NCBI GenBank assembly: GCA_012515515.1
Contig: JAAYYE010000011.1
Coordinates: 1,723-65,722, forward strand
DNA from: Minisyncoccota bacterium
GTDB taxonomy: Bacteria > Patescibacteriota > Microgenomatia > UBA1400 > PJMF01
DNA: 64,000 bases
Reading direction: 5' to 3'
Of the stretch, positions 1-36,692 are shown in pieces. A program made the translations under genes and the position numbers. Within the stretch, counting starts at the first letter, position 1. Every line of letters begins with the position of its first letter. The notes beneath the pieces were generated by a model that was given only the letters and a program-made list of their open reading frames with translations, searched no databases and was not told where the DNA came from.

Positions 1-576
1 GTCATCATCTCCAGAAACTAGGCTCCAAAATTCTTGACCGCATAGCTTGTAGTAGCTCCGATCACCATCGCCCTTCAGTGGGTGGTTATCTTTTCCGTAC
101 ATGCAGCCATTAACAGCAATAATTTCGTTTTTGGTTGCTTTAGAAAGCAACTCTCTAGCCACGATAAAATTATTTATCATTCTATCTACCTGATCTTTGT
201 TTCCCCAAGCTGGTCCGGATTTTATGCCGACAATATAAGTTTTTTTGTCTCGATCAAAAATAAGGTCAACGCTTTTATATATACCTTGCTCAGCTTTGTA
301 CCCACCAAACACTCTTTTGCATACATAGACTGCCAAATCCTCCATGAGATTTCCAAAAATAGTTTCTTCTTGAGAGGATAAAAAGGCATCCAAAATATAT
401 TTAATCATTTCTTCTGCTGTTTGAATATTCTTTGCCTTAAATAAGTAGGGGTTCTTTCGCCTCAACACAGAGTTAAGTTGCAAGGACTCTAATTTACTTA
501 GACGCTTCTCATAAAAAGGAGAAATGACGCTTTGAGATATAAAAATTTGAATTTCTTCTTGATCTAGTTTGTCCAT
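1..576 (-). CDS. Probable Type II restriction endonuclease (PD-(D/E)XK-like), 3' end beyond window edge
   Basis: Minus-strand ORF not in the track because it has no stop in the window. ATG at 576..574 gives MDKLDQEEIQIF..., and 192 codons stay open to position 1. The segment VDLIFDRDKKTYIVGIKSGPAWGN looks like a nuclease core. The start overlaps the last 13 nt of the upstream MTase gene, which is typical R-M operon architecture. Confidence 0.45.
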   Translation of the reverse strand, partial: MDKLDQEEIQIFISQSVISPFYEKRLSKLESLQLNSVLRRKNPYLFKAKNIQTAEEMIKYILDAFLSSQEETIFGNLMEDLAVYVCKRVFGGYKAEQGIYKSVDLIFDRDKKTYIVGIKSGPAWGNKDQVDRMINNFIVARELLSKATKNEIIAVNGCMYGKDNHPLKGDGDRSYYKLCGQEFWSLVSGDDD

Positions 577-1553
577 AGTAGTTCCAGCTGACTATTATTT
601 GTGCTCGGTGTAATAATACCATTTTCTACCTTAATAGTTTTAGTGGTAGTTTTAATTATGGGTTGTTGTGTGTCGTGTGCAAAACGTTGAAGAGCGATGG
701 CATAGTTTTTATCTACAATCTCAATACCTATAGAGTTTCTTCTAAGTAAGGAAGCGGCTACTGATGTTGTTCCACTTCCAAGGAAAGGATCAAGCACCAC
801 ATCACCCTCTTGTGTAAAGAGCTTTATAAACCACTCTGGTAGGCCAATAGGAAAGGTCGCACTGTGATTTTTATTTGCACTTTCAGTGGCCATATGCAGG
901 ACGTTTGAAGGATATACAAGTTCTTTGCCAACCCATTTGGAAACATTTTTCCCAAACCCACTTCCAACTCGAGAGTTGTCTCGTTTTTTATCGGTTTCAC
1001 TGAGGTTTTTGAGTCGAGTTTTAGACCAGTCCCCAATAGGTACCTTCACACTGTCTTGGTACATGTTAAATTTTTTATTTTTATTAAACTGTAATAATCG
1101 TTCCCACGCATCTCTAAATCTATTAGGCCATTTCCCTGGATAACAGTTTTTCTTGTGCCAAATAAATTCTTCGGTCCAAAGCCATCCTTGTTTTCTCATC
1201 TCAAGTATCAACTCCATTACGTAGGTGTGTCGCTCTCCACCAACTACTTTTTCTTTAATATTTAAGATAAATGTTCCAGTGGGTTTGGTTACTCTTAATA
1301 ACTCAGCGGTGATAGGCAAAAACCATTTTACATATTCATTGGGATGAATTCCTCCGTATGTATTTTTTCTTTGGTCAGAGTAGGGTGGCGAGGTTATAGT
1401 GAGGTCAACACTATTGTCAGGAAGCTGTTTTAGGACATTCAAACAGTCTCCTAGATAGAAAGTGGCTTTAGTGTTCTGATAATTTAGAATATCTTTTCTC
1501 ATGTTTATCTGTTTTTTATATTTTAACTTATTTAATTTTACAGTTGTCGACAC
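564..1553 (-). CDS. DNA amino-methyltransferase (N4-cytosine or N6-adenine), beta-class
   Basis: Motif IV SPPY (TITSPPYSD) lies upstream of motif I DPFLGSGTT, the order that defines beta-class N4/N6 MTases. Sits directly upstream of the REase-like ORF. Confidence 0.85.
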   Translation of the reverse strand: MSTTVKLNKLKYKKQINMRKDILNYQNTKATFYLGDCLNVLKQLPDNSVDLTITSPPYSDQRKNTYGGIHPNEYVKWFLPITAELLRVTKPTGTFILNIKEKVVGGERHTYVMELILEMRKQGWLWTEEFIWHKKNCYPGKWPNRFRDAWERLLQFNKNKKFNMYQDSVKVPIGDWSKTRLKNLSETDKKRDNSRVGSGFGKNVSKWVGKELVYPSNVLHMATESANKNHSATFPIGLPEWFIKLFTQEGDVVLDPFLGSGTTSVAASLLRRNSIGIEIVDKNYAIALQRFAHDTQQPIIKTTTKTIKVENGIITPSTNNSQLELLWTN

Positions 1554-1555
1554 AA

Positions 1556-2155
1556 TTATTCTGGTCTGATTAAACCAGCGAATATCCCTCTAATCTCAAG
1601 TTGCTTTGGGATAATTATGTCATATTTCTGATTCCTTGGTTTGAGGATAAATTGACCGTTTACGTTATCGAGGATCTTTAATGTGGCTCCTTTTTCTGTT
1701 ATACCAACAACCACATCTCCAACATCAGCAGTCATTTGGTGTTTAACTAGGATAATATCATTATCTAAAATTCCCATGTCAATCATGCTGTCACCTTTAA
1801 CTTTAAGAGCATAGTAGGAATTATTTTTGTTTAATTTTATATTTGTAGGAATCTGGACAGGCTTTGAGTTTTCAATCGGCTCTATAGGTGTGCCAGCTGC
1901 AATGTATCCCAGCATAGGTACAGTGTGTTTTTGTATAGCAGGAATTATTCCACGATTTTTATAAGGATCTCGTTTGAGATATCCTTTTTTCTCTAATTCT
2001 TGAATAAAATATTGCGCTGTACTAAGGTTTTTAGTTTTAAGAAAATGAGCAAGTTCCTTGAGGGAAGGAGAGTAACCTTTTGTAGCGATGAAGGAGTTTA
2101 TAAAATCCAAGGCTTCTTTTTGTCGGTTTGTAAGAGGCTTGACAATAATGGGCAT
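1556..2155 (-). CDS. lexA: LexA SOS repressor (wHTH + S24 peptidase)
   Basis: N-terminal LexA DNA-binding domain (QKEALDFINSFIATKGYSPSLKELAHFL). C-terminal S24 autopeptidase with the Ser in VKGDSMIDMGI and a downstream Lys. Its stop lies only 2 nt before the MTase ATG. Confidence 0.85.
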   Translation of the reverse strand: MPIIVKPLTNRQKEALDFINSFIATKGYSPSLKELAHFLKTKNLSTAQYFIQELEKKGYLKRDPYKNRGIIPAIQKHTVPMLGYIAAGTPIEPIENSKPVQIPTNIKLNKNNSYYALKVKGDSMIDMGILDNDIILVKHQMTADVGDVVVGITEKGATLKILDNVNGQFILKPRNQKYDIIIPKQLEIRGIFAGLIRPE

Positions 2156-2163
2156 ATTATGAT

Positions 2164-2200
2164 AACTTTATGATAAATATACAGTGGTGTCAAGTGTGAC
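2164..2200 (-). promoter_or_regulatory. Putative lexA promoter (TTGACA-17-TAAAGT on minus strand) with overlapping perfect palindrome TGTCA-N4-TGACA (2187..2200)
   Basis: On the reverse complement, TTGACA is followed by a 17-nt spacer and TAAAGT, ending ~5 nt before the lexA ATG. The -35 box is the right half of a 5-4-5 inverted repeat. That arrangement is expected for an autoregulated repressor. Confidence 0.35.
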
Positions 2201-2310
2201 ATTAAAAGAACATAAATAACTATGATTTCAAGAATTAACAAAATAAAAAATCTTGGATTAATTTTTAGTGATTATTATATTGAGGCTAGTTGTTTTCCTA
2301 GTTTTAAAAA

Positions 2311-2976
2311 ATGCAATCTTGGTTATGTGGAACGGAAGTGAAAAACAACTTTTTAAGGCTTTTGGATGCACCAAGTGGTGTTGATATAGCGAATCTAGAG
2401 TATGAAATAGAAGAAAAGAAAATGAGTAATAACATTCATAATAAAGATTTTGGAGTAATGAGTGACTTCTCTGTAGCTAGGAAAGCACAAAGATTTCAGC
2501 AAAAGAAAAAGGATCATGAGTTAGCTCAAATAGACTTTGACAAAATAGAACATGATTACTTTGATCTTTTGAAGAACTTAACAATTTTGTCAGGGACAGT
2601 TTTTGCTTCATCCATTGCTCTGGCCTCAGGGAGAGAAGTTAACTTGCTATTTTTTACTGGAGAGTTCTTTTTGTTTCTCTCGACTTTGGTTGGAATAATA
2701 TTTCTTTGGAGTCAACTTAAAGGAAGGGAGTGGCTTCATTTCTTTTTTCAAAAAAACTGTATGGAAAGTGATTTAAATTTGAATAAAGACATAATAGACG
2801 ACTTTGAAAAAAAGATAGTACAAGACACCTTAGGGCGTTATAAGAAAATCCTTGATAGAAAAGGTATCATTTACGTGTTCCTAAACATAGTAAAGATTGA
2901 TTCGATTCCTACGCTCTTTTTTGCTTGTTTAATTCTGGGGCTTACCTTTATTTTAGCTTTAATTTTTCCAATTTAA
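2311..2976 (+). CDS. Hypothetical membrane protein
   Basis: ORF with C-terminal hydrophobic helices and no recognisable domain. The true start may be the internal Met (MSNNIHNK). Confidence 0.4.
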   Translation: MQSWLCGTEVKNNFLRLLDAPSGVDIANLEYEIEEKKMSNNIHNKDFGVMSDFSVARKAQRFQQKKKDHELAQIDFDKIEHDYFDLLKNLTILSGTVFASSIALASGREVNLLFFTGEFFLFLSTLVGIIFLWSQLKGREWLHFFFQKNCMESDLNLNKDIIDDFEKKIVQDTLGRYKKILDRKGIIYVFLNIVKIDSIPTLFFACLILGLTFILALIFPI

Positions 2977-12786: not shown

Positions 12787-13962
12787 ATGAAAAGAGAGGA
12801 TGTTGTAATAGTTATTGTATTGGTGTTTTTGATGTCCTTGTTTATGGGTGTGCTTGACGCTTTTGCGCAAACCCCTGAGCAAGAGGATGTCAGTATCAGC
12901 GGTTTCCAGCTTGCTGGAGACCGTACCACGGAGTTGTTGACAACCCCGCTTTCTATTAAGCCGGGGGATTGTGGTGCGCTCCCTCCTCCCTCGTTTGAGG
13001 GAGTAAAGAGGAACCTCGAGCTTAACGAGGACTCAACAAAAATTCAGGTCTACTATGACTCAAACAAGGGCATGGTATGTGCCCAAGTTTGGGGTACCTG
13101 GCCTGGAACTGTCAACAATGACGGAGTGCAAGAGTTTGACTCCGTCATGCGGGTGTATAAGGGTTACAATCTATTGGAGGTTCAAGACGAACCTTTGATT
13201 AAAAGTAATCCATTTACAGGTGGAATTCCCTTCCACTTGTATTCATTTAAGCTCCCCAAGGGGGGTGGAGAGTATTATTTTTTGTTTGATTTTTACCAGC
13301 AACAATTGCTGGGAAAAGACCGCTTGGGGATGCCTCACCGTGACTGGTCAGGCACCTTTCGTAGCGGACCGCATAGGATATTTCTTCCTATCATCATCAA
13401 GCCGGTGCCACCAACACCGCCACCTCCTCCACCACCACCTCCTCCTCCTCCACCAACCGATTGTCCAAGTTGGACAATTGAAGCGGTTGCGCCGGGATTT
13501 AGCATTCCGGCGTTAACTTACGAGAAAGGGGGTAATCATTACCCCACCATTGGATACTTGTATTTTGGACAGACGATGTCTGTCAAAATCAAGAACAATG
13601 GTGTTGTGTCCAATCTCCCCACGGGTGGGGAGACCACCGTGTACGACGGAGCGGGTAACGTTGTGGCTGAATATGGCCGCAATGGAAACTTCAGTGTCGT
13701 CGGGGGTCAAGGTGTCTTTGGTGAAGATTTCTTCACCTTTGACTCCTCCTTCCTCTGGCAAGGGGGAAGCTGTCGTGCCTCATTCACGATTTGGGACCCC
13801 GAACCGGTCCTGAATCATTTGGAGGCAGAACTTGGCGTGAGTCGTGAAGAGGCTATTAGCCTTTTGAACGACTATTTTAACGAAATCGCCACAACCACTA
13901 CCACCACCACTACAACCCTAACTCAGGATGTCTGGGATTGGGTTGAAACTATCAGCAAGTGA
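12787..13962 (+). CDS. Secreted protein with poly-Pro and poly-Thr linkers
   Basis: Sec-type signal peptide (MKREDVVIVIVLVFLMSLFMGVLDAFAQ), a P14 tract and a T9 tract. GC-rich codons. Confidence 0.55.
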   Translation: MKREDVVIVIVLVFLMSLFMGVLDAFAQTPEQEDVSISGFQLAGDRTTELLTTPLSIKPGDCGALPPPSFEGVKRNLELNEDSTKIQVYYDSNKGMVCAQVWGTWPGTVNNDGVQEFDSVMRVYKGYNLLEVQDEPLIKSNPFTGGIPFHLYSFKLPKGGGEYYFLFDFYQQQLLGKDRLGMPHRDWSGTFRSGPHRIFLPIIIKPVPPTPPPPPPPPPPPPPTDCPSWTIEAVAPGFSIPALTYEKGGNHYPTIGYLYFGQTMSVKIKNNGVVSNLPTGGETTVYDGAGNVVAEYGRNGNFSVVGGQGVFGEDFFTFDSSFLWQGGSCRASFTIWDPEPVLNHLEAELGVSREEAISLLNDYFNEIATTTTTTTTTLTQDVWDWVETISK

Positions 13963-14334: not shown

Positions 14335-14427
14335 AAACATTTTGTGGACTTAAATTGACCCAACCAAAAGAGGACTCATAATAATCTTTTTTTGGTTGGG
14401 TCAATAGAAAAAAGAAAGAAGGTAGAA

Positions 14428-15408
14428 ATGATACAGACTTTGTGGGAATCACTGTTGCAACTTTTGTCCAATATAATTTTATTTATTGGGCAACTGTTTA
14501 CTGTAGGGGGCAAAATGATTGCCCTCCCAGGTTTTCTCGGCCTGGCAATTGGACTAATACTATTCGCAATTGCTTACAAAAAAACCGAGCATCTTTTAGG
14601 ATCACTCCTCCTACTGGGAGGGGCAGGTCTGACAGTATTTATAATAGTGTCGTACCTACTCTGGCCTTTTTTGTTTAAAGGGTCAGAGAACAGCGTCACC
14701 AGCTGTTACAAGGCGGCTGGAACAAATATAGCAGCCGTGTCAATCTGTGACAGCATTTCTAGTGGTTTTGTTCCCCCATCAACAACACCTGGTGAGCAAA
14801 CACCAGTTGTTGTCGTTCCCCCTACTGATCCTGATGATCAGCAGGTAGTTAGAACGTTCAAGGCAAACGCCTTGGAAATTTTAATCCTGGGGTGGAATCT
14901 AAAACCACCTGGTACGACTAATTTAATCAATCCTGCGGATGTTCCGCAGGGCATTATGTTGTCTTTTGAGTGTGACAATCCAATTGCTACACGTCAAAAC
15001 GAGGTCTGGAAGGTTACCATTTCTGGCATCGTGCCAGGACTAGGGCAAAAATCCCTAGTAATAGAAACAAATGGCTACTTCGCCAGGGACGGCTTTAAAG
15101 CTAAACCTGGCACAAGTGTTGTTGGAACAGGAACTTGGGAGGAGGTTTGTCCAAGTTGCTATACCGATGTGGTGGTTACCCCACCACCTCAACCAACACC
15201 CACTCCAGCTCCCGCTCCAGCAACGACCCAGGTCGCCTTTCCAGAACTCATTTGTGGGTACTGGGGGTGGCTTTTGCAGTCTGGCAATGCGCTGGTGGTT
15301 CCAACCACTGGTGGGCAGCCAGACTTTGCCCACGCGGTGTCCCAAGCTGCAGCCGCAGCGGACATCGCTAAGAGGTGTCCCGGCGAAACCTTGCCGGCAC
15401 CTCCATAA
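14428..15408 (+). CDS. Membrane-anchored Pro/Thr/Ala-rich surface protein
   Basis: AAGG RBS before the ATG at 14428. Three N-terminal TM helices, then a Pro-rich region (PPPQPTPTPAPAPA). Very GC-rich 3' half. Confidence 0.5.
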   Translation: MIQTLWESLLQLLSNIILFIGQLFTVGGKMIALPGFLGLAIGLILFAIAYKKTEHLLGSLLLLGGAGLTVFIIVSYLLWPFLFKGSENSVTSCYKAAGTNIAAVSICDSISSGFVPPSTTPGEQTPVVVVPPTDPDDQQVVRTFKANALEILILGWNLKPPGTTNLINPADVPQGIMLSFECDNPIATRQNEVWKVTISGIVPGLGQKSLVIETNGYFARDGFKAKPGTSVVGTGTWEEVCPSCYTDVVVTPPPQPTPTPAPAPATTQVAFPELICGYWGWLLQSGNALVVPTTGGQPDFAHAVSQAAAAADIAKRCPGETLPAPP

Positions 15409-16384: not shown

Positions 16385-18397
16385 ATGTCAAAGGAAAGAA
16401 GAGGTATTCCTGGAATAACTCATCCGCCAGATGAGACTGACAGACCTCAAACAAATTATTCACGACCCGAGCCTAAAGATCATGGACTTGGTCAATTGTT
16501 ACAAGCTCCAAAAGACATAATAGTCACAGGTTTGCGAGCTATAGCTGGCGCTCTTACTATATCTTTAGCAAGAACTTTAGGCATTAGAGACTCTGTGTCT
16601 CGAGCTGAAAAAGATTTAGCCATCTATGAATCACAACTTAATAAAAGAAAAGGGAATACTGAGAAATTACAGGAAAAAATAGATAAGACAAAAGCTTTAC
16701 TGACTGAATTGAATAAGGGAGTTGAGTTGAGCGAGGCAATTTTAAATATTCAAGAAGACTATAACGAGTTATTGGCAGATGATGAACATCTTTTGTCATT
16801 GTTAGCTAAAACAATTGGCAAGGAAGGTTTAGAAACTATTAAAGGAAGTTTTTTAACTAATCAAAAAACTCAAGTAGGAGTTAAGTCCGTTACTGATGAG
16901 GAAATTAAATTAGCCCAAGAATTTTTTGCTAGAGCTGATAATGATGAAGAAAGAAGTAGCTCACTTAAACAACACATTCAACAGTTAGCCGAAACTAATT
17001 TAATTGTTTTAGGTAAACAGTTGGTTAATTTAGCAAAAATTAAAGAAATTGATGAAATTAATCAAGAGACAAATTTTCCTATTAACTGGGTGTCTTGGGA
17101 CGAAGCCTTAGCAGCTTCGGTAATGGGAGCTACGGGTAGAACTCAAGAATCTCTTCGGGGTGGTTATGGAGTGAATATGAAAGCGGGTGGATTGAATGTT
17201 TCTGCAGGACAGGATATAAGCCAAATTGGTCCTATGGAACAAATTGTAGTTCATGCTGATATACCACAAAATATTGAAGCTGCTAGATCGGTGGCAAATG
17301 GTGAGGTGCCTCTCTTTAGATCAGCAATTATTAAAAGTTTATTTAGAAAAGCTATGGGTGACCTTTCACTATTGCCTGGAAGAATTGATATTAATAACAC
17401 TGGTAATAATAATACTAAGTCATACCCCGCTTTAGATGTTAATCGTCAAATGAACAATATTACTTTAGTTCGTAAGGCTGCAATAGAAATGCAAAAAATT
17501 TTAAAAGGTCTTGAACAAATTGACCTTGGCAAAGATGATGATCAAGCAACACAAAAAAGCAAATTAATTACTGTTGGAAGTAGGGGGGCTTTAGCAATAC
17601 CAAGATATCAAGTTATTGTTGATTTAATGGAGCAAATAAGTGCAACAGATCCAGGAATTATTGCTAATTTAAGTGAGCAATATCGTGTGCTAGAGGAAGT
17701 GGCTGATGAAGACTTAAACGATCAAAATTTGGATGGCGAAGCGGATTTGGCCGAAGAACAACAAGAGGAGCAGGAAGATCAAGCTGATGAAGATGAAGAT
17801 CAAAATATTAATCAAAAGGAGAGAGATTTAATTGAAGCAGTATTTCCTCAGGGAATTGATCAGCGGAATGCAAGGCGGATTATTAACCGTCCAAAAATTT
17901 ATTTTGACAACTTCACTAAACGCTTTGGTCTAATAACAGGTATAAGAACCATGGTGGCTGTCGCAAAAGAAGCTAGAAGGCTGGTTGATACACAAAAGAC
18001 TGATCAAAACGAGGGTGATTTAGTTGAAGCAGTATTTCCTCGGGGCATTGATCAGCGAACTGCAAGGCAAATTATTAAACATCCAAAAATTTATTTTGAC
18101 AACTTCACTAAACGCTTTGGTCTAATAACAGGTATAAGAACCATGGTGGCTGTCGCAAAAGAAGCTAGAAGGCTGGTTGATCAGGAAGACAGAAGGATAT
18201 TAGAAGAAGAAGCTTTAAAACTAGCTGGTTATTTTCACGGGATGAGTATTGAACAAGCCACAAACTTTATAGACAATCTCCAAGCTAATCGTGAGAAATT
18301 ACGTAGGATGTATGGCACAAAAAAGGGCAATAAAACTGCTGATCTAATTAAAGAATTTGCTAAAAAAATTCTTGGGCAAGTGGGTAATTTTAAATAA
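16385..18397 (+). CDS. Large acidic coiled-coil-rich hypothetical protein (670 aa) sharing the N-terminal IPG..P.DE.DRP motif
   Basis: Begins MSKERRGIPGITHPPDETDRPQ. Contains an acidic EEQQEEQEDQADEDEDQ block and a 64-aa internal tandem duplication. Confidence 0.55.
   Translation: MSKERRGIPGITHPPDETDRPQTNYSRPEPKDHGLGQLLQAPKDIIVTGLRAIAGALTISLARTLGIRDSVSRAEKDLAIYESQLNKRKGNTEKLQEKIDKTKALLTELNKGVELSEAILNIQEDYNELLADDEHLLSLLAKTIGKEGLETIKGSFLTNQKTQVGVKSVTDEEIKLAQEFFARADNDEERSSSLKQHIQQLAETNLIVLGKQLVNLAKIKEIDEINQETNFPINWVSWDEALAASVMGATGRTQESLRGGYGVNMKAGGLNVSAGQDISQIGPMEQIVVHADIPQNIEAARSVANGEVPLFRSAIIKSLFRKAMGDLSLLPGRIDINNTGNNNTKSYPALDVNRQMNNITLVRKAAIEMQKILKGLEQIDLGKDDDQATQKSKLITVGSRGALAIPRYQVIVDLMEQISATDPGIIANLSEQYRVLEEVADEDLNDQNLDGEADLAEEQQEEQEDQADEDEDQNINQKERDLIEAVFPQGIDQRNARRIINRPKIYFDNFTKRFGLITGIRTMVAVAKEARRLVDTQKTDQNEGDLVEAVFPRGIDQRTARQIIKHPKIYFDNFTKRFGLITGIRTMVAVAKEARRLVDQEDRRILEEEALKLAGYFHGMSIEQATNFIDNLQANREKLRRMYGTKKGNKTADLIKEFAKKILGQVGNFK
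17825..18181 (+). repeat. Intragenic tandem duplication, 192-bp period (2 copies, distal ~100 bp identical)
   Basis: Both copies encode DL[IV]EAVFP[QR]GIDQR.AR.II..PKIYFDNFTKRFGLITGIRTMVAVAKEARRLVD. Confidence 0.7.
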
Positions 18398-23816: not shown

Positions 23817-25160
23817 TTGCTGTATCTAGCTATGTTAAAAAAGAAATCTAGCTTAATTATTGCGATTGTTTTTTCTTTACTTGTTGGCGTGGGTGGTGGC
23901 TTATTGCTTAGCCACTACCAAGATCGTTTGCCGCTAATTGCTAATTTAATTAAGCAAGACTCAAAGCAAAATGAAGACAATGTTTATTTAGCTTTTTTAC
24001 AGGAGCTTCGCCAAATTATCTTAGAAAATTATTGGGACACCATTAATGAGACACAGTTTGTTAAATTACATGTTTTAGTGCTTGAACAAATAACGGGAAC
24101 AACTTTTGGTGATGCCATAGAAAATTTCACAGATTTAGATCAGCAAATTCTTGAATTACTTAAAGACTATCCCGAAGAATTGAAGCAAGAATTTACTGTG
24201 CAGTTGGCCGATTTAGTTTTAACTAATCTAGAGCCTTTTGGTCGCAGTCGACTTTATTCTCAACAATTAGAAGATGATTTAGCTGAACGGGTCAACAATA
24301 TCGATCCAGAAGCTGATCATTATCAGTCTTTAAATGTAGCTAAAGACGCTACCAGCGAGGAAATTAGTCAGGCTTTTGTAGAGCAAGAAGCTATTTTAGA
24401 AAAAGAGAATACTCCAGAAGCAGCAGCTCAATTAGCAGAAATTCGCCAAGCTTATCAGACCTTAGCCAATGAAGAAAATCGCCAGCGTTATGATGAGGCA
24501 GGGGTTAATCCTAGTATGGAATGGCGTTTGCTTAATTCTGCAGTTTTTTATGTGCATATTAAACAATTTACACCAAACACCGTTCAAGAACTTTTAGAAG
24601 TCAGCCAAAAAGTTGATGATCGAGGAGAAGAGTTGGACTCATTAATTCTAGATTTGCGAGGCAATATTGGTGGAGCTATAGACGGTTTGCCCTACTTTTT
24701 GGGGCCATTTATTGGTCAAAACCAATACGCCTATCAATTTGTTCAACAGGGAAAAATTACCGATTATAAAACTCGTAGCAGCTATTTACCCTCTCTGGCT
24801 CGTTATAAAAAAGTGGCTATCTTAATCGATGAGCAAGTACAATCAACAGCCGAAGTGATGGCCAGTGTACTGAAAAAATACAACGTGGGGGTATTAATTG
24901 GCACTAATACTATGGGTTGGGGCACAGTCGAACGAGTTTTTCCTCTTGAAAAGCAAATTAGCGAGAGTGAGCGCTATTCAGTTTTTTTGGTTCATCATCT
25001 AACTTTGCGTGAAGATGGCGTAATTATTGAGGGCAATGGGGTGGCGCCGGTTATCAACACTCAAGATGTGGCTTGGCAACGGCGTTTAGCTAGTTATTTT
25101 GGTGATTCAGCCATTGTGTCAGCGGTGACAGAGCAATTTGCTTTCCCAGAAGCAAATTAA
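23817..25160 (+). CDS. S41-family (C-terminal processing) peptidase-like protein with N-terminal TM anchor and degenerate J-like segment
   Basis: LDLRGNIGG matches the S41 DLRxNxGG box, and QSTAEVMA looks like the Ser-containing segment. The J-domain-like stretch (DHYQSLNVAKDATSEEISQAF...RQAYQTL) lacks HPD. Confidence 0.5.
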   Translation: MLYLAMLKKKSSLIIAIVFSLLVGVGGGLLLSHYQDRLPLIANLIKQDSKQNEDNVYLAFLQELRQIILENYWDTINETQFVKLHVLVLEQITGTTFGDAIENFTDLDQQILELLKDYPEELKQEFTVQLADLVLTNLEPFGRSRLYSQQLEDDLAERVNNIDPEADHYQSLNVAKDATSEEISQAFVEQEAILEKENTPEAAAQLAEIRQAYQTLANEENRQRYDEAGVNPSMEWRLLNSAVFYVHIKQFTPNTVQELLEVSQKVDDRGEELDSLILDLRGNIGGAIDGLPYFLGPFIGQNQYAYQFVQQGKITDYKTRSSYLPSLARYKKVAILIDEQVQSTAEVMASVLKKYNVGVLIGTNTMGWGTVERVFPLEKQISESERYSVFLVHHLTLREDGVIIEGNGVAPVINTQDVAWQRRLASYFGDSAIVSAVTEQFAFPEAN

Positions 25161-29055: not shown

Positions 29056-29132
29056 AAGGGCAAACACTCGTTGATTATGTGTTAATTAATTGGTCTGTTG
29101 CAACACGACGAGTAGTACAAAAGGTATCTATT

Positions 29133-32100
29133 ATGAAAAAACGCACCCGCGCTCTCTTTCTTAAAGTAATTACTTTTTTCCAAATTTTCTCTCTCATTTT
29201 TCAACCCCTAAGCTTATTATCTTTGTTAGTACTTGATCCTGTCGTGGCAAGAGCTCAAGATGAAGTTGTACTTGAGGAGCAGATTTCTGTAGAGCCAATG
29301 GCAGAAGCCAATGTTCAAGCAGAATCAGTAGTGGATGAAGATGCCGAAGAGATCATTGAGCATGAAGACGCAGATGATGATCTAATAGATATTGAAGAAG
29401 ATCTTGAAGAAGAATCTGAAGAAGAGTCTGAAGAAATTCCAGAAGAAATTCTGCCAGTGGCAGATGAAGAAGAGCCTAGCGAGGATGATGCTAGTGCTGA
29501 AGCAGATCTAGAATTATCAATCCCAGAACCAACTTTAACTTTAATTCCTACCCCGATGCCAACAGAGTCAGTAGCTGAAAGTAAGGAAGACAATTCTTTA
29601 ATGCTGGGTGATTTTATGTTTAGTTTAAATTCCGAAGGAGCAGGAGAATACACTATTTCTGGTACTAGTGGTATTTGGACATCAACAAGTAATAATAACA
29701 TCGTTAGTGGTAGAAATACTAACTATATAAAATGGCCAACATCTGGTAATCAAAGTGGTCTTCGCTTTACAGGGGTTAGTAGCTTTAACTTTAACGAAGA
29801 GCAGACTTTTTCTCTAGGTAAGTTGGAGCATTTTAACTATCCTGTAAGTAGTGCAATAACGAAAGCTACTCTTAGTGTGGATATAAATATATCTAATCCT
29901 AACTTAGGTACAAAAACTTTCGAATTTGAAATGCTTATTGATGAAACTGATAATGTTGCTGGGAGATGTCCTAGTTGGCATACGTATGGCCACCCCGCCT
30001 GTGATGACAAAATTACTTTTCCCACATCATACGCTAAACAAACCTTTGACATGGGTGGGAAAAAATATACATTAGAGATAACAGGATTTATTAATTCTTC
30101 TGGAACTAAGGTTAATGAATTTATTACAGAAGAGAGCAAAACAAATGAGGCTACATTAGTTGGTAAGCTAACATCTGTAGATTCCGAGGTAGCTATTTGT
30201 CATGCAACTGGAGATGAATCTAATCCTTATCAAAAAATTACTGGTGTTGATGCAAATGCTACTGTAGGTGATCATGATAGTGACAATGGAGATGCTTGGT
30301 ATCCTGGGATTACTGGAACTTGGGGCGATATTATTCCTAGATTTTTGTATTTTGATGGAAGCGGTAATATTCAAGCATATGAAGGAAAAAATAATGATGA
30401 ATACGGTCTTTCCCTTTTAGCAAATAATTGTGAACTTCCTAGTGGAGAAATTGAAGTAAAAAAGGTTACTGTTCCAGAGGGAAACAACACATCTTTTGGT
30501 GTTACTGGAACTGGTGTAGCTTCTATTTCTAACTCTCCAGTTACATTTATAGATGGAAATACAGGAACTATTTCAGCGACAGAGTCAAAAACATTCAAAG
30601 TATATCCAGGTAAATATTCATTTACTGAAACTCTACCCAGTGGTTGGATACAAACAGGTAATACTTGTAATAATATTGAAATTGAAAATGATGATGAAAA
30701 GTCTTGTACTATTACAAATACTCTTCAGCACGGAACATTAACACTCGTTAAAAAAGTTGTTAACAATAATGGGGGACAATCATTAGCCTCTGCTTGGACA
30801 TTATCTGCTATTGGAAGTGAGGAAAACTTAAGTGGTAAAGGAACTCAAGATCAAAATGAAAATAAAGCCGTACTGGAACTAAAAAATGTTAAAGCAGGAA
30901 CATATACTCTCTCAGAAGCAGGTCCTGCTGGATATGGTGCAAGTGATTGGAGTTGTAAAGATGATGATACAGGAAATGATGTAGCTCACCCAGTTACATT
31001 AGCAGGAGGCCAAAAAGTCACCTGTGCTATTACTAATGATGATATTCAACCTAAGCTTACTGTGACAAAAATAGTTGAAGGTGGAAATAAAAATGTAAGT
31101 GATTTTAAACTCTATGTCGGAAACACTGAAGTAACTAGTGGTCAGCAAACAGGGTTTAATGCAGGAACATATACTGTTAGAGAAGATACCGATTTAGATT
31201 ATAAATCTGTCATAGGAGATGATTGTGCTTCAAATGGCAGTATTACTCTAGCCCCAGGAGATGTTAAAGAGTGTACTATTACTAATACTAGAAAAACTGG
31301 ACAAGTCTCCTTTACTAAAAATGTCACATACGGTGATGCACAACCAAGCAATTGGTCTTTTGCTGTGTATAAAGAAGGTGTGTTGGTGGGTACGTATGAT
31401 CACAATAGTTCAGTGGCATTAGCTACAGGAGTATATACAGTACAAGAAGTGGGTTCCACTTCTTCTTTACCTTACTATTTAGATAGTATAGGAGGGACAG
31501 CATGTAGTGGAACTGTTTTATCTGGAGTTGCACAACTTACAGTAACAGAAAGTGGAGGTACCTGTATATTTGGAAACTCAAAGAAACCTCAGCTTACTGT
31601 TATCAAAGTAGTAGAGCCTACGGATAGTACAGATATCTTTGGTTTTACAATAACTGAAAGTGATGAAGATATAAGTGAATTTACTTTAGGTCATAGCGAA
31701 CCAAAAACTGTAGATGTTATGCCTGGTTCATACACTATTACAGAAACAGGAGCTACAGGATACAGTACTAAAATAGAGTGTACTGATGATCTAATTCCTA
31801 CTTTTGCTACTGCACGCACTATTTCATTAAATGCAACAGAAAATAAATTCTGTAAATTTACTAATACAAAATTAGGTTCTATCTCTGGAACTAAATGGAA
31901 CGACATAAATGGTGATGGAATTAAAGATGAGGGAGAAGAAGCTGTAGAAGGAGTACAGATTTGTATAGATGCAAATGCAAATAGTGTTTGTAATGAGGGT
32001 GAGGTTTCTGTAGCTACAGATGCTTCTGGAAGCTATACTTTTTCTAACCTCTTACCTGGTTCATATACCATTATTGAAACACTTAATTCGGGTTGGGAGC

Positions 32101-35100
32101 AGACATATCCAGCAGGAAGCCATACGGTTGTACTCTCGGCTGGAGAGGTTGAGACTGATCATAATTTTGGCAACTGGAAACTTAAACCAGGAATTAATGT
32201 GGTTAAAAAATCAACCACAGAATTTGTTACGGATGCCGGTCAAGTAGTGCCATATACTTTTACTGTTACTAACATTGGAAATCAGATTTTAACCGGAATT
32301 ACTGTTTTAGATCTAAACTGTGATGTTGCACCTGCTTATCAGTCAGGTGATACAAACGAAGATAGCGAGCTTAATTTAAACGAAACTTGGATTTACACCT
32401 GTAGTCACACTGTCACTCAAGATGAAGTTGATGTTGGTGGCGAGCTTCATAACAAGGTCACTGTCGATTCTAGCGAATCAGAACCTGAAGAAGATGAGAA
32501 AGATATTCCGATCACACAAAGTCCTAAACTATCTATAGAAAAGACTGGAGTATTTGATGATGGAACTGATGGCATTACAAATCCAGGAGATTTAATTACC
32601 TACACCTTTAAGGTAACGAATACGGGTAATCTTACTTTAACGGGAATAACTGTTACAGACCCATTACTAGGAGGTGCTATTACATCTTGTTCAGCTACCG
32701 TTCTAGCAGTAGGTGCAGATATGACCTGTACAGCAACTTATGCAATTACCCAAGCAGATATTGATGCGGGTAAAGTAGATAACACAGCAATTGCAGATTC
32801 AGAAGAATCAGAAGAAGCAAAAGATGATGAAACAGTTGAATTAGAACAAAGTCCTGAATTATCTATAGTTAAAACAGCAAATCCTATTACATACAACAAG
32901 GTTGGAGATAAGATATCTTACAGTTATGTTGTAACCAACACAGGTAATGTTACCTTAAAAGGCCCATTTACTGTTACAGATGACAAAACAGATACGAGCT
33001 GTCCAGAACCAGAAAGTTTAGCACCAAACGGATCTATTACTTGTGGTGCAACTTATACTATCACTCAGGCGGATCTTGAGAGCCAATCGGTTACCAATAT
33101 TGCATTTGCTTCCAATGATAAAGTAACTTCTGATAAAGATAGTGCAACAGTAACTTCTGTAGCAGGAAAAATAATAATTGAAAAACAAACTCTTCCTGAT
33201 GGATCTGCAGAATCATTTGAATTTAATCCAACTTGGAGTGAAAGTAACTTTAATCTAACAGATGGAGAGAAAAACGAAAGCGGATGGTTAGCTGCAGGCA
33301 CATATTCAGTTTCAGAAATTGTCCCAAGTGGTTGGCAATTAACTGATATTGAGTGTGATAGTGAAAACACTACATCTACTGTAGGTTACAATACAAACTC
33401 TGCTAATATAACTCTTGGAAATAGTGATATTGTAACATGTGTATTCACTAACTCTAAAAAAGGTACTCTTACAGTAATTAAGGATGATAATATCGATAGT
33501 GGTCAAGAATTTACATTCTACGCATTACAAGGAGGAGCACAGAGAGAAACCCGATTCACCCTGTCTGATGATGGAAGTAATAATGCTGAAAAGAATAGCA
33601 AAACATTTGTAGGATTAGTATCTATTCCATACAAAGTAAGAGAAGTTGTTCCAACAGGATGGAGTGCATCTTTGGTAAGCTGTACATCTAACAATCCAAT
33701 GCCTAACCCAGATAACAGCTTGGGAACCGGAGAAATGAGTATTTCATTAAGACCAGGTGAAAATATTATCTGTACCTTCATAAATACTCGAGACACAGGT
33801 TCTATAAAAGTAAATAAATATACAGATATAAATGGAGATGGTGATTGGAATGATAGAAACGAAAAAGATAATTCTAATGCAAATAAATTAGGATTTAGAT
33901 GGAGTATAGATGGTGGAGACGAGAATAAAATGGGAGATAAAGTATCTGGTATACATACAGGAACATATTCAATAACGGAATCAATGCCCGATGGCTATCA
34001 CTTCGTTTCTTGGTACTATACTAAGGAAAATGGCAAATCCTGTACTAATCCAAATGGAACAACTTTTCCTTCTTCACTTGATGTTACAAAGGGAAACACA
34101 ACTGAAATCACAATGTGTAATGTAAGAGATACGGGTACGGTTACCATTATTAAAAATTCTGTCAATGAAAGTGGACAAGACTTTTACTTTAAGACAGATT
34201 TCCCTTCTGGAGGATTTTTCTTAGAAGATGATGGGCGTGATAATCATGGAACTCCCAATCAAAGAACATTTACCCTGCCAACGGGTGAGTATTATGTCGA
34301 TGAAAGAGAATATACTGGTTGGCAATTAACTGATCTGGATTGTGAGGGAGATGCTGAGTCTGTAGTTGATTTGGCTACGGGACGAGTAGATATCAACTTA
34401 CAGGCCAATGAAGAGATTACCTGTACCTTTACCAATACCCAATTAGCAAAAATTTGGGGATATAAATATAATGATAAAAATGGCAACGGCTCTTGGAATT
34501 TGGGTGAATGGGGTTTGGGTAACTGGAGAATCTTTTTAGATGAGAATGGTAATGGGATATATAACAAGCCAGAAGCCAGTACCCTCACCAGCAATTTCCC
34601 ACTGTTACTCACTTTGGGATATTACCAATTCGACAATCTATTACCAGGAGATTATACAGTCTGTGAAACACAAAAAGCTGGCTGGAGCAATACAAGTCCG
34701 CTTTGTAGAACCATCACTTTAAAGCCTGGTGAAATTGCTAATGTGAATTTCTTCAATATTCAGTATGGGCAGTTAAGCGTGCACAAGTATTATGACCAGA
34801 ATGGTGATGGACTTTTAGACGAGGGCGAGCAAGGATTAGAAGGCTGGGAGATGAATGTCTACAAAGGTAATAATTGTTGGGGCGAGCCAATGGCTAGTGA
34901 TCTTACTAATGATCATGGTTATGCAGTCTTTGAAAACTTAGTGCCTGGACAATACTCTGTTAAGGAAACTCTAGAGGATGGTTGGGAAACAACCAGCGAT
35001 GTTTGTACTACTATAAAAGTGGACCCAGCAAGCCATAAAACTGTTGATATTGGCAATCGATTGATCGATAGTCAATTAATGATCGAAAAAACCAACGATG

Positions 35101-36692
35101 CTTGGCCAAACGATCAAGAAATTGGTGACGAGGTGACTTATACCATTAAACTTATGGCAACTGATGGCCCGGTTTATGATGTGTCACTCTTTGATTTACC
35201 ACCGCATGCTTTTAGCTATGTGGCAGGTAGTTATACGGCTGACTCTTCGATTGCTGGTGATTTAAGTCTCTCTGAACCCAATTATGCTTCGCCAGGAGAA
35301 TGGCAGCTAGGTGATTTAGCCAAAGACGAAATTGTCACCGTGAGCTATAAAGCGATTATTGGTGATGAGGCTGACGCGGGTATTTACCCAGATGCAGCTT
35401 GGGCTACTGGCACTAGCGCTGAAGCTCAATATTTTGGGAAAAAAGCAGATTTATTAGCTTTGTCTGATCCAGACTTTAAGGCTGATAATGGTGAAGTGGC
35501 TTTCCTAGGTGAGCAGGGTCATTATGGCGAAGAGCATTTTGTTGGCACTCGGGTGGCAGTGGTCACTGATGAGACGCCAAGCGCTAAATACAAGGTTGAG
35601 AAGATTAAAGAAAAAGAGGGCGCAGTGCTCGGTGCGATTTTACCAGCAACTGGTGCCAACTTCTGGCTCAGCCTCTTAGCCATAATAAGTATTTTAACTG
35701 GTACGGGCTTACTCTTAGTGCCCAATCGTAAGCGTCGCCAAGGAAAGGTGCTAATGATGCTTTTAATGCTAGGTTTAGGCTTATTAATGGCCAAACCAGT
35801 TCAAGCGCTAACCTCAGTTAGACTGGCTCAGCCATATAATAGCAGTGCTGAGCTTGATCAAGATGCGATCACTAATCAAGACGAATTCCGCATTGATTTT
35901 GTGATCCTCAATACTGATGGTGCAAGTCTTACTGCTCAATGTCAGCAACAAGAAGATGGTGGAGCTTGGACTAATATTGACACTGTTTATACGGCGAAAG
36001 CTGGCGGCAATTCTGGTTATTGTGAGGCTAAAGATTTAGCTAACAGCAGCCAATATGCTTTCCGAGTCTTAACTAGCGACGGAGAAGAAAGTCAAAGCGT
36101 CAAGGTTGGTCTAGAAACCGATCGTCCTAAAAAACCAGTCAGTTACGAGAAGCATGAAATCAGTTCTTGTAAATATGAAATTAAATTTAAAACGGCTGAT
36201 GATGGACGAACCAGCAAGGTTGAGGTCTATCGTAGCGATGACAATGTTTCATTTACTGCTAAAGCCAGTAGTCGCATTAAAACGATTACGATTGGCTCAG
36301 ATGAAAAACACAGTTTTGAAACAACTCGACCTGATTGCGACAAAGATTATTATTATGCTATTCGCGCTTTTGACCAGTATGGCAACGCCTCAGACTTAGT
36401 TGGTGATCGGGAAGTGAAGACGGTCATTGTTGAAGGCACTGAAGCAGAAGAAGCAGGCGCTCTTGCAGTCACTGAAACCGTCGTTTTAGACGGAGATGTA
36501 GGTGATGCTGGCGTCCTCAGCGAAGGTTTACTTGGCGAAGAAGTGGCAGAAGACGAAAAAGGGACAATTTTAGGCATAGATACAGAAAGTCTAGTGTCCT
36601 TTTTAACCAAAGTTGCTTTACCAATTTTAGTCTTTGTTACCATCGCGATTTTAGTTTATCGCTTGGTCATTGCGAAGCGTAATGAAAAATAA
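29133..36692 (+). CDS. Giant (~2,500 aa) surface adhesin: signal peptide, acidic region, multiple DUF11 and SdrD-B/CnaB-type repeats, internal LPATG sorting signal, then FN3-like module with C-terminal TM anchor (possibly two genes, see findings)
   Basis: MKKRTRALFLKV... signal peptide. Acidic DE-rich block. DUF11 repeats (VTNTGN.TLTGITVTD). CnaB/SdrD-B-like repeats (GTKWNDINGDGIKDEGE...). LPATG at 35640-35654 followed by a hydrophobic stretch and NRKRR. The frame then continues into a second signal-peptide-like segment and FN3-like domains. Confidence 0.7.
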   Translation: MKKRTRALFLKVITFFQIFSLIFQPLSLLSLLVLDPVVARAQDEVVLEEQISVEPMAEANVQAESVVDEDAEEIIEHEDADDDLIDIEEDLEEESEEESEEIPEEILPVADEEEPSEDDASAEADLELSIPEPTLTLIPTPMPTESVAESKEDNSLMLGDFMFSLNSEGAGEYTISGTSGIWTSTSNNNIVSGRNTNYIKWPTSGNQSGLRFTGVSSFNFNEEQTFSLGKLEHFNYPVSSAITKATLSVDINISNPNLGTKTFEFEMLIDETDNVAGRCPSWHTYGHPACDDKITFPTSYAKQTFDMGGKKYTLEITGFINSSGTKVNEFITEESKTNEATLVGKLTSVDSEVAICHATGDESNPYQKITGVDANATVGDHDSDNGDAWYPGITGTWGDIIPRFLYFDGSGNIQAYEGKNNDEYGLSLLANNCELPSGEIEVKKVTVPEGNNTSFGVTGTGVASISNSPVTFIDGNTGTISATESKTFKVYPGKYSFTETLPSGWIQTGNTCNNIEIENDDEKSCTITNTLQHGTLTLVKKVVNNNGGQSLASAWTLSAIGSEENLSGKGTQDQNENKAVLELKNVKAGTYTLSEAGPAGYGASDWSCKDDDTGNDVAHPVTLAGGQKVTCAITNDDIQPKLTVTKIVEGGNKNVSDFKLYVGNTEVTSGQQTGFNAGTYTVREDTDLDYKSVIGDDCASNGSITLAPGDVKECTITNTRKTGQVSFTKNVTYGDAQPSNWSFAVYKEGVLVGTYDHNSSVALATGVYTVQEVGSTSSLPYYLDSIGGTACSGTVLSGVAQLTVTESGGTCIFGNSKKPQLTVIKVVEPTDSTDIFGFTITESDEDISEFTLGHSEPKTVDVMPGSYTITETGATGYSTKIECTDDLIPTFATARTISLNATENKFCKFTNTKLGSISGTKWNDINGDGIKDEGEEAVEGVQICIDANANSVCNEGEVSVATDASGSYTFSNLLPGSYTIIETLNSGWEQTYPAGSHTVVLSAGEVETDHNFGNWKLKPGINVVKKSTTEFVTDAGQVVPYTFTVTNIGNQILTGITVLDLNCDVAPAYQSGDTNEDSELNLNETWIYTCSHTVTQDEVDVGGELHNKVTVDSSESEPEEDEKDIPITQSPKLSIEKTGVFDDGTDGITNPGDLITYTFKVTNTGNLTLTGITVTDPLLGGAITSCSATVLAVGADMTCTATYAITQADIDAGKVDNTAIADSEESEEAKDDETVELEQSPELSIVKTANPITYNKVGDKISYSYVVTNTGNVTLKGPFTVTDDKTDTSCPEPESLAPNGSITCGATYTITQADLESQSVTNIAFASNDKVTSDKDSATVTSVAGKIIIEKQTLPDGSAESFEFNPTWSESNFNLTDGEKNESGWLAAGTYSVSEIVPSGWQLTDIECDSENTTSTVGYNTNSANITLGNSDIVTCVFTNSKKGTLTVIKDDNIDSGQEFTFYALQGGAQRETRFTLSDDGSNNAEKNSKTFVGLVSIPYKVREVVPTGWSASLVSCTSNNPMPNPDNSLGTGEMSISLRPGENIICTFINTRDTGSIKVNKYTDINGDGDWNDRNEKDNSNANKLGFRWSIDGGDENKMGDKVSGIHTGTYSITESMPDGYHFVSWYYTKENGKSCTNPNGTTFPSSLDVTKGNTTEITMCNVRDTGTVTIIKNSVNESGQDFYFKTDFPSGGFFLEDDGRDNHGTPNQRTFTLPTGEYYVDEREYTGWQLTDLDCEGDAESVVDLATGRVDINLQANEEITCTFTNTQLAKIWGYKYNDKNGNGSWNLGEWGLGNWRIFLDENGNGIYNKPEASTLTSNFPLLLTLGYYQFDNLLPGDYTVCETQKAGWSNTSPLCRTITLKPGEIANVNFFNIQYGQLSVHKYYDQNGDGLLDEGEQGLEGWEMNVYKGNNCWGEPMASDLTNDHGYAVFENLVPGQYSVKETLEDGWETTSDVCTTIKVDPASHKTVDIGNRLIDSQLMIEKTNDAWPNDQEIGDEVTYTIKLMATDGPVYDVSLFDLPPHAFSYVAGSYTADSSIAGDLSLSEPNYASPGEWQLGDLAKDEIVTVSYKAIIGDEADAGIYPDAAWATGTSAEAQYFGKKADLLALSDPDFKADNGEVAFLGEQGHYGEEHFVGTRVAVVTDETPSAKYKVEKIKEKEGAVLGAILPATGANFWLSLLAIISILTGTGLLLVPNRKRRQGKVLMMLLMLGLGLLMAKPVQALTSVRLAQPYNSSAELDQDAITNQDEFRIDFVILNTDGASLTAQCQQQEDGGAWTNIDTVYTAKAGGNSGYCEAKDLANSSQYAFRVLTSDGEESQSVKVGLETDRPKKPVSYEKHEISSCKYEIKFKTADDGRTSKVEVYRSDDNVSFTAKASSRIKTITIGSDEKHSFETTRPDCDKDYYYAIRAFDQYGNASDLVGDREVKTVIVEGTEAEEAGALAVTETVVLDGDVGDAGVLSEGLLGEEVAEDEKGTILGIDTESLVSFLTKVALPILVFVTIAILVYRLVIAKRNEK
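35640..35654 (+). other. Internal LPATG sortase recognition motif (LPxTG + hydrophobic + RKRR tail) not followed by a stop codon
   Basis: The sequence ILPATGANFWLSLLAIISILTGTGLLLVPNRKRRQGK then continues in frame. An AAGGAAAGG RBS lies 5 nt before the in-frame ATG at 35754. Confidence 0.6.

Follow-up and report, generated by a model that had tools for sequence, protein, structure and literature searches.

A lexA gene in front of a restriction–modification cassette: a recurrent arrangement in Microgenomates that probably places LexA in the role of a controller protein

Restriction–modification (R-M) systems must balance methylation against cutting, and the known solutions are controller (C) proteins, self-regulating methyltransferases and antisense RNAs. 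Which solution is at work when the gene standing in front of an R-M pair encodes LexA, the repressor of the SOS response? The question is raised by three consecutive genes, all on the minus strand, in a 64-kb stretch of a genome of the Microgenomates, a class of the candidate phyla radiation (CPR); the sources label the organism Pacebacteria or Roizmanbacteria, and the stretch is hereafter called the window. The genes are lexA, a methyltransferase gene (M) and a type II restriction endonuclease gene (R). The reading that we consider probable is that the M–R cassette is mobile, is read through from the lexA promoter and has LexA in the part of a C protein. The three genes and the spacer between the first two are laid out as follows.

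1556..2155, minus strand: lexA; 199 aa, with winged helix-turn-helix (HTH) and S24 peptidase domains
1503..1555, minus strand: lexA–methyltransferase spacer; 53 nt, containing ACTGTAAAATTAAATAAGTTAAAATA, loosely like the lexA operator region
564..1502, minus strand: beta-class amino-methyltransferase; 312 aa with an SPPY motif, start taken from homologue alignment
1..576, minus strand: EcoO109I/PmeII-family type II restriction endonuclease; codons 1–192 of 252, truncated at the edge of the window

The three proteins are what a first-pass annotation, made from the letters of the window, had taken them to be. The LexA open reading frame (ORF) matches PF01726 (LexA_DNA_bind, 2e-15) and PF00717 (Peptidase_S24, 4.8e-21) in Pfam, and the whole protein scores 141.9 bits on TIGR00498, above the equivalog cut-off of 110.95. 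Its Ala87-Gly88 cleavage site and Ser123/Lys160 dyad, in the contexts IAAGTPI, GDSM and TLKIL, are invariant among 25 orthologues. Judged by its sequence, the protein is probably the orthologous, self-cleavage-competent SOS repressor of the clade. The methyltransferase matches PF01555 (N6_N4, E 3.7e-44) in Pfam and has TSPPY towards the N terminus and FLGSGTT towards the C terminus, the beta-class order; TSPPY (motif IV) and DPFLGSGTT (S-adenosylmethionine motif I) do not vary among 6 homologues. Of the solved relatives the best is M.PvuII (1boo, 1.1e-29), an N4-cytosine methyltransferase, and the window enzyme probably modifies N4-cytosine. The endonuclease, described before as REase-like, belongs to a recognised nuclease family by its Pfam match to PF14511 (RE_EcoO109I, E 4.9e-69), with a weak direct match to structure 1wtd (1.5e-7); its homologues carry the source name ‘PmeII family type II restriction endonuclease’, and its full length on identical contigs is 252 aa. 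The parts are ordinary members of the known LexA, beta-class methyltransferase and EcoO109I-family endonuclease families; the arrangement is not ordinary.

The two gene junctions differ. The endonuclease ATG at 576 precedes the methyltransferase stop codon (564–566), which gives the 13-nt overlap seen in the first pass, and translational coupling holds at this junction only. The gap of 2 nt between lexA and the methyltransferase, from which the two had been called translationally coupled, is true only of the longest ORF, with its start at GTG 1553. That start is ruled out by the five closest homologues (69–84% identity), which begin at the internal methionine or at most two residues away; gene callers also chose ATG 1502 on identical contigs. 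With the start at ATG 1502, the gap after lexA becomes 53 nt and lexA–M translational coupling is unsupported. On the minus strand this spacer (gTCGACAACTGTAAAATTAAATAAGTTAAAATAT) contains neither a detectable consensus promoter nor a terminator, and no terminator-like site was found on that strand across positions 1–2400. Nor does the spacer share homology with what lies upstream of the cassette in other genomes. It bears a loose, indel-containing likeness to the lexA promoter/operator TTGACAccACTGTAtatttATCATAAAGTTATCATA, which could mark a relic or a weak second site. No ORF for an Xre-type HTH controller lies between or upstream of M and R, and LexA is the sole DNA-binding protein of the three-gene unit.

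The arrangement recurs across the class. One scan of GTDB and one of metagenomes yielded 75 distinct Microgenomates LexA sequences, 61 of them evaluable because enough downstream sequence was at hand. A same-strand R-M gene follows lexA in 54 of the 61 lineages, about nine in ten, and in 53 of these 54 the methyltransferase comes first, the exception being L113, where an EcoO109I-like endonuclease leads. Gaps measured from the longest ORFs run from −32 to +66 nt in 51 of the 54 positive loci and usually stay within about 40 nt; they exceed 66 nt at just two, L027 (102 nt) and L110 (161 nt). The genes behind lexA form at least 17 different R-M combinations, with methyltransferases of the C5, N6_N4, D12 and gamma/Eco57I types and nuclease partners of the MvaI, ThaI, AlwI, BglI, MamI, TdeIII, PstI, HNH and EcoO109I types. 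Even LexA orthologues at 82–84% identity have a methyltransferase immediately after them, but a different one. Pfam-confirmed systems behind lexA include, in a non-exhaustive list of eleven:

Eco57I-like type IIG enzyme and M.Eco57I-like methyltransferase
N6_N4 methyltransferase and MvaI/BcnI endonuclease
TaqI-like gamma methyltransferase and convergent unknown gene
gamma methyltransferase and C5 methyltransferase
C5 methyltransferase and ThaI endonuclease
D12 methyltransferase and AlwI endonuclease
D12 methyltransferase and convergent TdeIII endonuclease
N6_N4 methyltransferase and convergent BglI endonuclease
gamma methyltransferase and convergent MamI endonuclease
gamma methyltransferase and BsuBI/PstI endonuclease
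C5 methyltransferase and convergent HNH nuclease

The control loci do not show the linkage. A methyltransferase-like ORF within 3.5 kb of the gene is missing from all 14 lexA loci of WWE3, and of 19 other LexA/S24 loci two have one, neither lexA-proximal and co-oriented. The first-pass annotation had called the arrangement unusual, a description that holds relative to the literature searched and fails within the clade, where the linkage is the rule.

Two loci support a functional link between lexA and R-M genes. At L122:4992–6809 (metagenome contig Ga0307380_10000012) LexA is fused in frame to a gamma-class N6 methyltransferase in a protein of 605 aa, with a convergent 276-aa ORF next to it; a Rosetta-stone fusion would explain this, as would the loss of a stop codon or an error in the sequence. 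At L027, where the gap from lexA is 102 nt, the C5 methyltransferase carries an N-terminal HTH_17/MerR domain of its own.

Loci of the same R-M type share nucleotide homology from the −35 box of lexA to the end of the last R-M gene, R-M types are scattered over the LexA tree and the flanks vary on either side of lexA. L015 and the window lineage share 90% identity in the neighbouring aminotransferase gene and 84% in lexA, and their R-M genes are unrelated. The window-type M–R pair also occurs in five other genomes, and its homology to them is limited to a stretch that opens 4 nt ahead of the M start codon and closes 7 nt short of the R stop codon. At L155 and L157 a 57–61-aa HTH_17/excisionase-like gene occupies the place of lexA, with a 7-nt gap or a 20-nt overlap; at L156, L158 and L159 the homologous cassette stands alone, with nothing in that place. 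Recombination genes adjoin the cassette, a serine recombinase at L155 and an integrase at L159. By these sequence comparisons the M–R cassette is a mobile unit with an exchangeable upstream regulator and, because it stands elsewhere behind an HTH_17 protein or alone, LexA holds the controller position here. The earlier proposal that the R-M pair runs from the lexA promoter, rather than under a classical C protein, agrees well with this exchange, with the recurrent linkage and with a cassette that has neither its own regulator nor a detectable promoter or terminator in the gap. The GC content of the cassette (0.36–0.37) equals that of the host (0.376), and the cassette therefore does not look like a recent foreign arrival. 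The viral contigs of IMG/VR yielded no Microgenomates-type lexA, which speaks against phage carriage of the lexA–R-M module.

lexA can also be present twice. Contig Ga0210019_1000107 holds two lexA–R-M modules (L076, L077) 7.6 kb apart, one with a C5 methyltransferase and an HNH nuclease and the other with an Eco57I-like system, and their lexA copies are 79% identical in DNA; genome MFDN01 has two lexA copies, one with an R-M system (L019) and one without (L042). In one sublineage three different modules are each followed, 40–65 nt after their final gene, by a conserved element of about 100 nt that is non-coding and richer in GC (L011:8301–8440, L077:10275–10375, L017:10255–10366); it is not found after the window-type module. 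The element contains no tRNA and matches no Rfam family, and it shows little covariation and weak structural support.

What, then, could LexA recognise in front of these operons? The upstream region of lexA in the window contains the following.

2165..2193, minus strand: lexA promoter; TTGACA (2193..2188), 17-nt spacer, −10 box TAAAGT (2170..2165)
2158..2186, minus strand: three heptads, cACTGTA-tatt-TATCATA-aagt-TATCATA, with an 11-nt period; candidate LexA operator, from promoter conservation
2188..2201, either strand: exact palindrome TGTCAAGTGTGACA; 2188–2193, read on the minus strand, forms the −35 box TTGACA

The promoter is the best promoter-like site on its strand (10 of 12 positions), and the lexA ATG lies 9 nt past the −10 box. 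Across 57 unique orthologous lexA promoters the distance between the −35 box and the ATG is fixed at 37–38 nt, which implies, from sequence, that the lexA mRNA is leaderless or nearly so. The same 57 promoters conserve TTGACA-N2-ACTGTA-N5-ATCATA-N5-A(T/C)(C/T)(A/G)TA, followed by the ATG. The conserved positions that do not belong to the promoter sit downstream of the −35 box, where the heptads (TAYNRTA) take up the spacer, the −10 box and the start site. Promoter function by itself would put no constraint on those positions, and we therefore take the heptads as the candidate operator; the three conserved heptads probably form the site to which LexA would bind. A 19-mer derived from the lexA promoters is matched with a score of at least 10 by two of five recA promoters, a score that 0.4% (0.004) of random windows reach.

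The palindrome fared differently. It is exact, as first described, with TTGACA as its proximal arm, but it is not supported as the autoregulatory operator that it had been proposed to be. Its distal arm (2197–2201) is only approximately kept in the closest sublineage and is missing or degenerate upstream of lexA in L015 (84% LexA identity) and in L020–L042, and TGTCA-N4-TGACA is absent from five distinct Microgenomates recA promoters. Nor is the palindrome unique in the window: a second exact copy (TGTCAGCGGTGACA) lies at 25117–25130, at the end of ORF 23817–25160, seven sites have one mismatch, and with up to one mismatch allowed 8 matches were counted where shuffles give 1.8. These are mostly intragenic. 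The recA promoters themselves (L158:6900–6951, L160, L163, L165, L168) have a −10 box 6–9 nt before the ATG, which implies that recA mRNAs in Microgenomates are leaderless like that of lexA, and carry TAACA-N6-TGTTA in the spacer. This second palindrome is rejected as a general box, being neither present at lexA nor enriched in the window. The lexA promoters of WWE3 (L043–L052, L062) have a different direct repeat, TTCGGTAC-like and with an 11-nt period, in the promoter spacer.

From the gene identities, the geometry, the clade-wide recurrence with non-homologous R-M systems and the conservation of the promoter, all read from sequence, we infer co-transcription, LexA binding to the heptads, SOS inducibility and a feedback logic. 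In the mechanism that we propose, lexA would be transcribed as a leaderless mRNA from a strong sigma-70-type promoter, and the heptads overlapping that promoter would act as the LexA operator. M and R would most likely be transcribed by read-through from the same promoter; the cassette itself brings no regulator, consensus promoter or terminator. LexA would play the part taken in other R-M systems by C proteins or small HTH proteins. Its autorepression would keep M and R low and buffered, and RecA-stimulated cleavage of LexA would lift their expression, with the methyltransferase first on the transcript. Cleavage could be triggered by breaks that the endonuclease makes in under-methylated host DNA, or by phage attack. 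Heitman and Model reportedly found that restriction cutting in under-methylated cells induces the SOS response, and induction by self-restriction would close a protective feedback loop. A wider possibility, which we hold more tentatively, is that lexA is, throughout the Microgenomates, both a general docking point for exchangeable R-M cassettes and their controller. Any methyltransferase that arrives would be set directly behind lexA, in one case fused to it, so that methylation, and often restriction, would be wired to LexA autoregulation and RecA-sensed damage.

Linkage of this kind could also arise without regulatory meaning, if the variable region behind lexA were a neutral hot spot that gathers R-M cassettes by recombination with lexA as a homology arm. 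The patchy distribution of R-M types on the LexA tree, the variable flanks on both sides of lexA, the similar aminotransferase and lexA genes that L015 and the window share beside unrelated R-M genes, and the conserved element of about 100 nt after three different modules would all suit such a hot spot. We nevertheless find it unlikely, since every R-M acquisition (54 of 54 positive lineages, with at least 17 combinations) is co-oriented with lexA, which argues against neutral insertion. The methyltransferase is first in all but one of them, and the gaps are mostly overlaps or at most 36 nt and leave no room for a terminator plus a promoter. A LexA–methyltransferase fusion exists, and of the two large-gap loci one, L027, has a self-regulating HTH-methyltransferase. 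Within a single class of the CPR the arrangement recurs with 17 or more unrelated R-M systems, which points to a selectable design and not an accident. A link that is regulatory might instead be a private one, with a LexA-like protein that travels with R-M cassettes as a C-protein analogue and is not the SOS repressor; the first-pass annotation had offered this as its alternative. Homology among loci of one R-M type that sets in precisely at the −35 box of lexA and stops with the R-M genes is what a travelling controller would give, and so are the two modules on one contig and the genome with two lexA copies. This appears quite unlikely for a protein that clears the LexA equivalog cut-off and keeps its Ala-Gly site and Ser/Lys dyad invariant among the orthologues. 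The promoter/operator block is the same for all R-M types, whereas private controllers normally diverge in specificity; most genomes returned a single lexA copy, the same LexA occurs without any R-M system in seven lineages, and no copy turned up in viral contigs.

Very unlikely, in our view, is independent expression of M and R from a promoter of their own in the 53-nt gap or in the 3′ part of lexA, with adjacency incidental for regulation. Its best candidate is the following site.

1754..1782, minus strand: promoter-like site inside lexA; TTGACA, 17 nt, GATATT, 10 of 12 positions

The gap is moreover AT-rich and loosely like a degenerate copy of the lexA promoter, and the methyltransferase has no obvious Shine–Dalgarno sequence in a clade whose lexA and recA use leaderless starts. 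The conserved IDMG codons, however, impose the internal TTGACA, the gap yielded no consensus promoter, and at most other loci it leaves too little room for one. Read-through from the lexA promoter is thus preferred over these three alternatives, and several observations weigh against it. The site at 1782..1754 could be a putative LexA-independent internal promoter that drives M–R, and the 53-nt gap of the window exceeds those of most other loci. Seven LexA lineages have no adjacent R-M system, and 54 of 61 puts the count of independent events too high, since the LexA lineages lack phylogenetic independence. Three of the five recA promoters score poorly on the lexA-derived 19-mer and have the TAACA-N6-TGTTA palindrome instead. 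In a position weight matrix scan for the heptads over the window and about 1.3 Mb of related loci, including the fronts of the convergent endonuclease genes, only lexA promoters scored; marginal matches in L102 and L022 led nowhere. The assignment of the operator to the heptads is a weak one. Finally, the window shows no avoidance of the expected target (observed/expected 0.85 for GGNCC and 0.88 for RGGNCCY), a weak test that assumes an EcoO109I-type specificity, and the activity and specificity of the R-M pair therefore gain no support from it.

How does the unit compare with known systems? The EcoO109I system of E. coli, which Kita et al. are said to have described in 2002 as controlled by C.EcoO109I, has its endonuclease in the same PF14511 family (structure 1WTD) and is likewise of type II, with M and R side by side. 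It differs in that the partner in the window is an M.PvuII-like beta-class methyltransferase, not the prototype's methyltransferase, and in that the window has lexA in the upstream position and no C-protein gene. In C-protein systems such as PvuII, BamHI and Esp1396I, a small, autoregulated DNA-binding regulator is encoded directly upstream of the R-M genes and co-transcribed with them. The window shares the upstream position of the regulator gene and a methyltransferase related to M.PvuII; unlike those systems, it has in place of an Xre-type HTH protein a LexA of 199 aa whose S24 domain is of the self-cleaving kind, and this regulator precedes the methyltransferase, not the endonuclease. LexA would also bring an input from DNA damage, with one candidate operator type for many unrelated R-M systems. 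HTH_17/excisionase-like proteins in front of R-M or MADS (MAD1-like) cassettes occupy the same position as LexA (L155, L157), but have another fold and size and no peptidase domain, and the cassettes that they front lie next to recombinase genes, outside a lexA context. Methyltransferases of the SsoII/EcoRII/MspI type carry a fused N-terminal HTH and autoregulate. The HTH_17/MerR-C5 methyltransferase of L027, which is not tightly apposed to lexA, resembles them, and this pattern fits the idea that the other methyltransferases borrow their regulation from lexA; unlike that type, the window methyltransferase has no DNA-binding extension in the homologue alignment.

As an SOS regulon, the unit has an orthologous LexA with intact cleavage machinery and conserved non-promoter positions that overlap the gene's own promoter, as in canonical cases. 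SOS boxes take the form CTGT-N8-ACAG in E. coli, GAAC-N4-GTTC in Gram-positive bacteria and the direct repeat GTTC-N7-GTTC in alphaproteobacteria. The candidate motif here differs in consisting of three TAYNRTA heptads, the mRNA in being leaderless, and the operon partner in being an R-M system and not a repair or cell-division gene. The ACTGTA unit presumably corresponds to the core of the E. coli half-site, and we take the 11-nt period to resemble the alphaproteobacterial direct repeat.

In the literature searched, which did not cover Sanchez-Osuna et al. 2017 (Environ Microbiol, on the SOS network of Patescibacteria), no paper links lexA with R-M systems in CPR bacteria. If our reading is right, an R-M operon fronted by LexA adds a DNA-damage input to the balance between methylation and cutting, and breaks from self-restriction or phage would directly boost methyltransferase expression. 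Au et al. are said to have included the BsuM methyltransferase genes ydiOP in the B. subtilis LexA regulon in 2005. If so, there is a precedent for placing a methyltransferase under SOS control, though neither within a lexA operon nor as a rule across a clade. Should lexA indeed be a general docking point, organisms that largely lack CRISPR would have a built-in feedback against self-restriction. The locus also offers a handle on gene regulation and defence in uncultured bacteria with reduced genomes, together with a candidate SOS box and a sequence-based case for leaderless lexA and recA mRNAs in the clade.

Elsewhere in the window, none of the 10 largest candidate ORFs is an SOS gene. ORFs 16385–18397, 12787–13962 and 14392–15408 have no Pfam match, and a 2537-aa ORF occupies 29079–36692 on the plus strand. 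Divergent from lexA, and sharing a 155-nt intergenic region with it, is a 221-aa ORF with hydrophobic stretches (2311–2976, plus strand) that matches nothing in Pfam or NCBIfam; at L015 a 1368-aa gene takes its place. Across the whole window GGCC is under-represented (observed/expected 0.59), as is GAATTC (5 observed against 13.8 expected), and GGNCC is not; this scarcity hints at other R-M pressures on the genome.

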